Source: Escherichia phage ECO95 1-6-1
Sequence record: OR845713.1
Length of the DNA: 1,735 nucleotides
Direction: 5' to 3' (one strand)
Part shown: one piece after another, positions 3 through 1,735 of the stretch
Numbering within the stretch: position 1 is the first letter of the stretch
Layout: each line of letters begins with the position of its first letter
Notes under the pieces: generated by a model
What the model was told of the DNA's origin: nothing
The model's input: the letters and a program-made list of their open reading frames with translations, nothing else
Databases searched by the model: none
Translations under genes and position numbers: made by a program

Positions 3-1735
3 GATGGCCTGTGTACCGCCAGGGTCAACGGCCTGGAGGAAACCATCCTCTACAGCCGGGATGCCGCAGGCCGCCTGGCAGAAGTCATCACTCCGGAAGG
101 CAAAACGCAGTATGCGTATGACAAATCCGGCAGGCTGACGGGTATCTTCAGCCCGGACGGCACATCACAGCGCACCGGCTATGATGAACGCGGGCGGGTG
201 AATGTCACCACTCAGGGCCGACGGGCCATTGAATACCACTACCCCGACGAACACACCGTCATCCGCTGTATCCTGCCACCGGAAGATGAACGCGACAGAC
301 ACCCCGACGGATCCCTGCTGAAAACCACATACCGCTACAACGCCGCCGGAGAACTGACGGAGGTTATCCTGCCGGGGGATGAGACGCTGACGTTCAGCCG
401 TGATGAGGCGGGACGTGAAGTGCTCCGGCACAGTAACCGGGGTTTTGCCTGTGAACAGGGCTGGAATGCAGCCGGTCAGCCTGTCAGCCAGCGCGCCGGA
501 CTTTTCCCGGCGGAAGCCACATGGGGCGGACTGCTCCCTTCACTGCTACGGGAATACCGTTACGACAGCGCGGGTAACGTATCAGGCGTCACCAGCCGGG
601 AAGATTACGGACGGGAAACACACCGGGAGTACCGGCTTGACCGGAACGGCCAGGTCACGGCGGTGACAGCCTCAGGCACCGGGCTGGGCTATGGCGAAGG
701 CGACGAGACTTATGGCTATGACAGCTGCGGCTACCTGAAGGCGCAGTCTGCGGGCAGACACCGGATAAGCGGAGAGACTGACCAGTATGCCGCAGGCCAC
801 CGGCTGAAACAGGCCGGAAACACACAGTATGACTATGACGCCGCAGGCCGGATGGTCAGCCGCACAAAACACCGTGACGGCTACCGCCCAGAAACAGAGC
901 GGTTCCGGTGGGACAGCCGGGACCAGCTGACCGGGTATCGCAGCGCACAGGGGGAGCAGTGGGAATACCGCCACGACGCCAGCGGCAGACGGACGGAAAA
1001 ACGCTGCGACCGGAAGAAAATCCGTTTTACGTACCTGTGGGACGGCGACAGTATTGCGGAAATCCGGGAATACCGCGATGATAAACTGTACAGCGTAAGG
1101 CACCTGGTGTTTAACGGCTTTGAGCTGATAAGCCAGCAGTTCAGCCGGGTACGACAGCCGCATCCGTCCGTGGCCCCGCAGTGGGTGACGCGAACGAATC
1201 ATGCGGTGAGCGACCTGACGGGCCGCCCGCTGATGCTCTTTAACAGTGAAGGTAAAACCGTCTGGCGGCCGGGGCAGACCAGCCTGTGGGGGCTGGCACT
1301 CAGCCTGCCCGCAGACACAGACTACCCGGACCCGCGCGGGGAGCGGGACGCGGAAGCCGACCCCGGCCTGCTGTATGCAGGACAGTGGCAGGATGCAGAA
1401 TCGGGGTTGTGCTATAACCGGTTCCGATATTACGAGCCGGAAACCGGGATGTACCTGGTGAGTGATCCACTGGGGTTGCAGGGAGGGGAGCAGACTTACC
1501 GGTATGTGCCGAATCCTTGTGGGTGGGTTGATCCGCTGGGATTGGCTGCAAGTTCTAAAATCAGCAGTTTGATGGACTATATTGGCGATGGTCGTCGTGT
1601 TAGTGGGCATACGGGTTTCCTGGATGGGGTTCGTTTATCACGTAGTCAAATAAACAATATTGCTAAAGAAATGGAGAAGCTAGGAATTAAAGTAATAAGG
1701 AAAGCAGATAAATATTTGCCACCAAATGCTAGGGC
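3..1735 (+). CDS. rhs: Rhs-family YD-repeat protein (polymorphic toxin), internal fragment; both ends of the gene lie outside the window
   Basis: Frame 3 is open across the whole window (hand translation, no stop). Translation contains many YD-repeat units (e.g. QYAYDKSGRLTGI at 108-146, TYRYNAAGELTEV at 327-365, EYRYDSAGNVSGV at 552-590, QYDYDAAGRMVSR at 825-863) and the Rhs core terminus LLYAGQWQDAESGLCYNRFRYYEPETGMYLVSDPLGLQGGEQTYRYVPNPCGWVDPLGL (1368-1544). High-GC core followed by an AT-rich tip is the classic enterobacterial Rhs architecture. The paralogue (rhsA/B/C/D...) cannot be resolved from this fragment; the symbol is given at family level only. Confidence 0.93.
51..1100 (+). repeat. 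YD-repeat array (protein-level degenerate repeats forming the Rhs shell)
   Basis: Repeated Y/F-x-Y/R-D-x-x-G-R/x-L/V units read directly from the translation at nt 51-77 (YSRDAAGRL), 111-137 (YAYDKSGRL), 174-200 (TGYDERGRV), 330-356 (YRYNAAGEL), 393-419 (FSRDEAGRE), 555-581 (YRYDSAGNV), 630-656 (YRLDRNGQV), 711-737 (YGYDSCGYL), 828-854 (YDYDAAGRM), 903-929 (FRWDSRDQL), 966-992 (YRHDASGRR) and 1032-1064 (YLWDGDSIAEI). The repeats are degenerate at protein level and not tandem at DNA level. Confidence 0.85.
1368..1544 (+). other. Conserved Rhs core C-terminal segment with two DPxGL motifs; putative aspartyl autoprotease site, predicted cleavage after Leu at 1542-1544
   Basis: Translation LLYAGQWQDAESGLCYNRFRYYEPETGMYLVSDPLGLQGGEQTYRYVPNPCGWVDPLGL. 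Asp codons at 1464-1466 and 1530-1532 lie 22 residues apart, each in a DPLGL context. The segment ends with the canonical PxxxxDPxGL (1515-1544). In characterised Rhs/TcC proteins this region forms the autoproteolytic site that releases the C-terminal toxin; recalled from the literature, not computed. Confidence 0.8.
1545..1735 (+). other. Variable C-terminal tip of the Rhs protein (putative toxin domain), N-terminal ~63 residues only; family unassigned
   Basis: Starts at the first codon after DPxGL. GC falls to about 40% (hand count 77 G+C in 191 nt) against about 63% in the core (38/60 for nt 1-60). The protein sequence is unrelated to YD repeats and rich in K/I/S. The frame stays open to the window edge. 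Confidence 0.7.

Follow-up and report, generated by a model that had tools for sequence, protein, structure and literature searches.

A drop in GC content at the probable junction between conserved core and exchangeable toxin tip of an Escherichia coli T6SS Rhs effector gene

Rhs core, terminal motifs and toxin tip

The 1735-nt stretch of DNA analysed here (the window) lies inside an E. coli T6SS Rhs effector gene and contains neither of its ends. In the plus strand, which encodes the core, the motifs and the tip described below, frame 3 crosses the whole window without a stop and was translated into 577 codons open at both ends. The first 514 of them (nt 3 to 1544, open at the 5' end) belong to a partial Rhs core made of YD-repeat shell and C-terminal plug. 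In the window translation, Pfam PF05593 (RHS_repeat) was matched in four stretches (E=4.5e-29) and NCBIfam TIGR01643 (YD_repeat, YD_repeat_2x) with E=2.5e-28. The core closes with its 'hyperconserved' part, the Rhs repeat-associated core domain (nt 1356 to 1544), in which the predicted aspartyl autoprotease motifs are found. Residues 452-514 correspond to positions 13-76 of the 76 positions of TIGR03696 (Rhs_assc_core, E=2.6e-19). In the same way, the RHS_core profile NF041261 is matched over positions 1148-1261 of 1261, and for both profiles the last matched residue is number 514, a Leu whose codon is nt 1542-1544.

Two DPLGL motifs can be read at the end of the core. The first (nt 1464 to 1478) lies 17 residues before the second (nt 1530 to 1544), which terminates a PxxxxDPxGL demarcation motif at nt 1515 to 1544, in the form P-CGWV-DPLGL with Pro at 1515-1517. 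The peptide across the junction is SDPLGLQGGEQTYRYVPNPCGWVDPLGL followed by AASSKISS. PxxxxDPxGL has been described as the sharp demarcation of Rhs-CT regions (Poole et al. 2011). In Rhs1 of Photorhabdus laumondii, where the DPLGL motifs are also 17 residues apart, cleavage separates Leu-1342, the last residue of the second DPLGL and of the shell fragment, from Ala-1343, with which the toxin begins, while D1338 is essential and the D1338N substitution abolishes cleavage (Jurenas et al. 2021, PMC8636562). The window likewise contains DPLGL, 17 amino acids, DPLGL and then Ala, a combination that probably represents the sequence signature of the Rhs aspartyl autoprotease. By homology to Photorhabdus Rhs1, the catalytic Asp is predicted at nt 1530-1532 and the scissile bond between Leu (1542-1544) and Ala (1545-1547). 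Cleavage is thus a prediction here, and the toxins of the two proteins are different, Tre23 in P. laumondii and Tox-MPTase4 in the window.

Beyond the junction, nt 1545 to 1735 encode the first 63 codons of this C-terminal Tox-MPTase4 tip. The full tip is 150 aa long in a nucleotide-identical copy from O157:H7 EDL933, which matches PF15640 (Tox-MPTase4) over profile positions 1-132 of 132 (E=7.2e-34) and contains the HExxH motif as HEVIH, past the window end and hence outside the 63 residues seen here. Tox-MPTase4 and the cassette logic of such toxins were described by Zhang et al. 2012. The tip is probably a zincin-like metallopeptidase with toxic activity, as its domain match suggests. A conserved ORF of 69 aa (WP_001299578.1) was found 3' of the tip in EDL933, PV15-279, Ec1119, E24377A and SS52. 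It has no family match in Pfam or NCBIfam, and this small AT-rich gene is presumed to have an immunity role.

Altogether, the features of Rhs polymorphic toxins are present, namely YD repeats, a core ending in PxxxxDPxGL, a variable tip, and a GC-rich core next to an AT-rich tip. An antisense ORF at 672-1610 (312 aa) had no Pfam match, and scanning both strands around 1500-1600 against Rfam gave zero families at gathering score. The only repeats found were short ones of 14-31 nt, all of them in the repeat-rich core upstream of nt 1400 and none at the junction.

Composition of the core and of the tip

An earlier note on this DNA had reported about 60-65% GC before nt 1545 and about 40% after it. 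This is what was measured, with 61.9% GC in nt 3-1544 and 40.3% in nt 1545-1735, while GC at third codon positions (GC3) falls from 70% to 29%. In a two-segment model the maximum-likelihood change point is nt 1549 (2xLLR 34.7), and a step of this size was reached in none of 5000 base shuffles (maximum 23.6) and none of 3000 codon shuffles (maximum 22.7).

The note had also described the switch as sharp and located exactly at 1544/1545. The boundary is exact in the protein, but 2-lnL support for the compositional change point extends over 1526-1634, and the fit of a step (lnL -420.92) is equalled by that of a linear ramp between 1360 and 1690 (lnL -420.48), the two models being indistinguishable on 1735 nt. 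In successive 30-nt windows over 1501-1710, GC is 0.57, 0.47, 0.43, 0.57, 0.43, 0.30 and 0.27, and within the tip it is 47% in the first 96 nt and 34% in the following 95 nt. The profiles of GC and GC3, which had been suggested as a check, thus gave a significant drop but not a clear step, and the GC3 change point is found further upstream, at nt 1511 (support 1493-1577). When nine alleles with nine different tips were pooled, the GC change point was at 1491 (support 1488-1523) and GC3 decreased gradually from about 0.8 to 0.38 across 1485-1544. The GC drop is therefore real, but 'sharp' and 'exactly' are overstated from composition alone.

Alleles of the core and the end of homology

The window was compared by megablast with 5426 complete E. 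coli genomes. The core was matched in 2398 of them, with 3387 matches in total, most alignments stopping at query nt 1518-1564. The tip alone (1545-1735) is present in 1164 genomes and at least 99% identical in 1163, where its annotation reads zincin-like metallopeptidase toxin. Alleles of the window's core in these genomes bear nine or more unrelated tips, and loci carrying eight other tips were retrieved for comparison with the window. Among these tips are one annotated as an AHH nuclease-type toxin and one as a restriction-endonuclease-fold toxin, several being without a name. GC of the first 191 nt is low in all nine tips (0.34-0.44).

At the protein level, collinearity is kept as far as DPxGL in every allele compared (one has DSYGL there), and the sequences are unrelated beyond. 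The proposal of the earlier note that a conserved core is fused here to a tip of different origin is supported by the nine unrelated tips and by this stop of collinearity. Homologues with the eight other tips do not remain collinear through 1545-1735, as those of a conserved protein would. Their identity with the window is about 95% as far as roughly 1516-1543 and only 29-37% afterwards, mismatch density jumping from about 5% to about 65-70% with change points at 1516-1543.

At the nucleotide level, the same limit is less precise. Among 28 allele pairs, mismatch change points range from 1516 to 1555, with 11 of the 28 at 1516. Averaged over allele pairs, identity is 0.86-1.00 up to 1517, 0.63-0.74 at 1518-1544, 0.53 at 1545-1553 and about 0.27 beyond. 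The zone from 1516 to 1544, in which the peptide is conserved while nucleotides diverge, is the left edge of the tip cassette at the nucleotide level. The DPxGL codons differ synonymously among tips (GATCCGCTGGGATTG, GATCCTTTGGGGCTG, GATCCCTTAGGATTA and GATCCATTAGGTTTA). Nucleotide identity among alleles begins to fall as early as about 1516-1525, which means that tips come with DPxGL codons of their own. Alignment with related Rhs genes, from which a collapse of identity at 1545 had been expected, thus gave a collapse near the junction, but one that begins before it. The boundary is exact in the protein and fuzzy in the DNA, where it lies roughly 20-55 nt upstream.

In parallel, genomes that differ by 4-7% in the adjoining core were found to share the 191 nt of the tip without a mismatch, and the left end of the block that is identical among zincin-tipped alleles falls within the core, at about nt 1485-1525. 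A tip at least 99% identical in so many genomes next to a core that differs by 4-7% indicates that core and tip are evolutionarily decoupled. This decoupling, together with composition, suggests a foreign origin of the tips. Searching for close relatives of the tip protein outside E. coli returned only Shigella flexneri (99%), and no donor lineage was identified.

Locus context and crossover between main and orphan genes

In strain E24377A, the same tip is carried by a full-length Rhs protein of 1620 aa with the architecture prePAAR-PAAR-DUF6531-RHS repeats-Tox-MPTase4. The gene order is vgrG, a DcrB-family gene, rhs, the 69-aa ORF, an ISAs1 element and nrfB/nfrA. Profile matches were obtained for PAAR_motif (E=3.5e-13), prePAAR_I (E=3.8e-4, below the curated cutoff) and the DcrB family (E=1.4e-27). 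The features of a T6SS PAAR-Rhs effector of the prePAAR class are thus present in the E24377A homologue, the window itself being without the N-terminus. The locus, with vgrG, a DcrB/Eag-like gene and rhs beside nrfB/nfrA, is the 'position 4, clade IV' locus of Jackson et al.

The arrangement is different in O157:H7 (EDL933, PV15-279 and SS52), in which the full-length rhs bears another tip followed by a 135-aa ORF. The Tox-MPTase4 tip is found just downstream as an orphan, with 1032 nt of core in EDL933. In Ec1119, it follows an AHH-tipped gene, again as an orphan, and its core fragment exceeds 2.5 kb. Along the EDL933 locus, GC alternates between 0.60-0.68 in the core, 0.29-0.38 in the tip and small ORF, 0.58-0.67 in the orphan core and 0.30-0.35 in the orphan tip and small ORF. 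This alternation shows that low GC belongs to whole cassettes, including non-coding DNA, and not to the composition of one protein.

The window has no mismatch with the main rhs of EDL933 over nt 1-1349 and 16 differing sites in 1350-1544. With the EDL933 orphan, it has no mismatch over nt 1275-1735 and 38 differing sites in 513-1274. A single crossover within nt 1275 to 1349, main-identical on the left and orphan-identical on the right, thus relates the window to the O157:H7 arrangement. This interval is situated 195-270 nt upstream of the junction, and the stretch identical in both parents is only 75 nt long. The earlier note had proposed that the junction marks the site where tips are recombined. 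That modules are swapped is confirmed, but the mapped crossovers are upstream in the core, as in this interval, and the junction is the distal limit of homology and not the recombination site.

The whole window was absent from the 5426 complete E. coli genomes, the best full-length match being 96.5%. Similarly, an exact search for a diagnostic 100-mer (1266-1365, containing main and orphan SNPs) gave no hit in species-representative genomes and none in JGI metagenome contigs. The sole complete genome matching nt 1200-1450 perfectly is that of O157:H7 SS52. This finished genome displays patchy gene conversion between main and orphan cores, with its own tip kept, which indicates that recombination between core copies of the locus occurs in finished genomes. 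SNP patterns over 11 core alleles were too mosaic to distinguish a recombinant product from an ancestral allele.

Interpretation and alternatives

Very probably, the GC drop corresponds to the core/tip junction of an E. coli T6SS Rhs effector gene whose tip is exchanged by homologous recombination inside the core. Nucleotides 3-1544 encode the last part of the GC-rich YD-repeat shell together with its plug, in which the two DPLGL motifs lie, and the AT-rich sequence from 1545 encodes an exchangeable Tox-MPTase4 toxin that is presumably self-cleaved off between Leu and Ala. The exchanged cassette would comprise a piece of the 3' end of the core, the toxin and the immunity gene. Homologous recombination within the conserved core would swap such cassettes by replacing everything 3' of the crossover, and older tips would stay downstream as orphans. 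The boundary is exact in the protein because the DPxGL cleavage motif is under selection, while in the nucleotide sequence it is spread over the final 20-55 nt of the core.

It could also be envisaged that 1544/1545 is itself the recombination site, with a precise cut-and-paste at DPxGL by a site-specific or microhomology mechanism. Such a mechanism would account for protein collinearity that stops exactly at DPxGL in all alleles examined and for the pairwise mismatch change points that fall at 1540-1546. It is nevertheless very unlikely, since the crossover relating the window to O157:H7 is about 200-270 nt upstream, the 100%-identical block of zincin-tipped alleles begins within the core, the DPxGL codons are synonymously different with the most upstream change point, 1516, recurring in 11 of 28 pairs, and the core fragments of orphans vary in length from 1032 nt to more than 2.5 kb. 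Moreover, recombination in Salmonella was shown to take place over a 522-bp homologous stretch of core (Koskiniemi et al. 2014, PMC3967940). Even less credit is given to the idea that the amino-acid composition or functional constraint of the toxin, and not a separate origin of the DNA, lowers GC at the junction. The tip peptide is indeed rich in Lys, Ile and Asn, and GC falls at codon positions 1 and 2 as well (from 0.66 and 0.50 in the core to 0.48 and 0.44 in the tip), but GC decreases most at the third positions, which are silent (from 0.70 to 0.29). In addition, low GC extends through the downstream small ORFs and intergenic DNA, nine unrelated tips of different folds are all AT-rich, and the tip is nucleotide-invariant on cores differing by 4-7%.

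A more serious concern is that the core-tip combination of the window could be a short-read assembly chimera, in which the assembly jumped from the main to the orphan gene through shared sequence. The lack of the window in the complete genomes and of the diagnostic 100-mer in the other collections would be expected of such an artefact, and at the switch the identical stretch shared by the parents is no longer than 75 nt. On the other side, finished SS52 shows a like exchange in its main/orphan conversion patches, the reading frame is unbroken across the switch, and recombination of main by orphan genes is an established biological process (PMC3967940). A chimera is considered less likely than not. 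The GC junction at about 1545 would be unaffected by it, because the orphan copy has an identical junction. No evidence was found against the overall core/tip picture.

With respect to the combination itself, the window would be either a main-by-orphan fusion product or the substrate of the reverse reaction, the integration of a circle in which a core fragment is joined to the tip and the immunity gene. As a tentative possibility, an orphan Rhs toxin of the O157:H7 lineage may have been activated in nature, through a single crossover at 1275-1349 between the main rhs and the downstream orphan. The crossover would fuse the silent Tox-MPTase4 tip to a full-length, secretable Rhs, and the resident tip would be lost together with its immunity gene if no duplication of the locus had come first. 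The data fit this activation and an ancestral allele preceding displacement equally well, and they also fit an assembly chimera.

Known systems and significance

The boundary between the GC-rich core and the AT-rich tip of Rhs genes is already known and has been described since the 1990s, and every element of the present picture is published. For instance, the E. coli Rhs elements studied by the Hill laboratory, as relayed in Jackson et al. 2009 (PMC2935791), combine a core of about 62% GC with a divergent AT-rich extension of 130-177 aa. The window has the same composition switch at the end of the core and a tip of 150 aa. It comes from a vgrG-linked clade IV locus and not from K-12 rhsA-E, and otherwise there is no substantive difference. 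An end motif DPXG-(18)-DPXG and downstream low-GC cassettes are also reported in Jackson et al. 2009 (PMC2935791) and, through its citations, in work from the Hill laboratory. Displacement of C-termini by homologous recombination was proposed for clade IV position 4 in the same paper (Jackson et al. 2009, PMC2935791, Fig. 5-6). Judged by the same strains (E24377A and O157:H7) with a single clade IV rhs each, the locus is the same, and as in that displacement model, the tip that strains have in common is fused to the full-length gene in some of them and left as an orphan in others. What differs is that the crossover is narrowed here to a 75-nt interval and that the combination seen in the window is present in no complete genome.

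In Salmonella Typhimurium LT2, the full-length rhs is about 95% identical, over a stretch of core, to an orphan located downstream, and recombination between the two joins the orphan toxin to the full-length gene (Koskiniemi et al. 2014, PMC3967940). Relative to EDL933, the window has the same structure as LT2 rhs-main/rhs-CT-orphan, in another species and with another toxin. Unlike in LT2, the event is deduced here from sequence, and the 1735 nt are compatible with fusion or with the reverse reaction, integration, and with or without a prior duplication. CdiA-CT/VENN toxins and Neisseria MafB are alike in having a conserved delivery body, a short motif at the abrupt switch to a variable toxin, downstream orphan toxin/immunity cassettes and low-GC variable parts. 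Nevertheless, CdiA and MafB are unrelated proteins with other secretion routes (type V for CdiA) and are not T6SS-delivered YD-repeat proteins.

The principle is thus established and no new kind of system is added. Two refinements can be made, namely that the exchangeable cassette starts 20-55 nt before the motif and brings its own DPxGL codons, and that actual crossovers take place further upstream in the core. They help to annotate Rhs tips and orphans and to avoid mis-assembly of such loci, and would not surprise a specialist. If true, the activation of the orphan would be the wild counterpart of the laboratory-evolved Salmonella event. More generally, the junction explains how one delivery scaffold is re-armed with many toxins, and it is also the predicted point of the self-cleavage that would free the toxin.

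Core-tip combination of the window

The window joins two pieces of the rhs locus of O157:H7 EDL933, with a switch from one to the other at 1275-1349. Its nt 1-1349 are without mismatch to the full-length main rhs gene of this strain, and nt 1275-1735 are likewise without mismatch to its orphan, the downstream core fragment that carries its own tip. This core-tip combination (1-1735) was found in none of 5426 complete E. coli genomes, in which the closest full-length match reached 96.5%. It could be a natural recombinant or an ancestral allele, and it could also be an assembly chimera.

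The Tox-MPTase4 tip itself is invariant at the nucleotide level, at least 99% identity being observed in 1163 of 1164 genomes, and the core directly 5' of it differs by 4-7% among genomes sharing a near-identical tip. Comparison of window 1485-1735 with the loci of Ec1119, E24377A and EDL933 (L003, L010 and L001) placed the left edge of the invariant block at about nt 1485-1525, within the core.

Junction and neighboring reading frames

At the equivalent of 1530-1544, E. coli PEC178 (L007) encodes DSYGL (GACTCATATGGATTA) and not DPxGL. When window 1545-1553 was compared with the equivalent positions in L001, L003 and the E. coli rhs loci L004 and L009, a similar short peptide was observed directly after DPxGL in several otherwise unrelated tips (A-I-C-Q, A-T-C-P, A-I-C-P, G-A-C-P and V-G-C-S), nucleotide identity over these first three tip codons still averaging 0.53. 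This similarity may reflect a preference of the predicted cleavage site at P1' or in the linker.

An antisense ORF of 312 aa (672-1610, minus strand) runs across the junction. No Pfam family matches it, and spurious ORFs of this kind are expected opposite GC-rich coding DNA. A conserved 69-aa ORF (WP_001299578.1; 7979-8188 in L001) always follows the Tox-MPTase4 tip, in EDL933 as well as in PV15-279, Ec1119, E24377A and SS52 (L001, L002, L003, L010, L012). It is presumed to be the immunity gene and has no family match in Pfam or NCBIfam.

Exchange between main and orphan copies

In O157:H7 SS52 (L012), the main rhs (1963-6813) is 87 nt shorter than that of EDL933. With EDL933 as reference, its core contains orphan-type alleles at window positions 623, 939-1141 and 1350-1469, and the SS52 orphan (7406-8740) contains main-type alleles at 1025-1190, 1407, 1427 and 1469. 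This pattern indicates gene conversion in patches between the two SS52 core copies.
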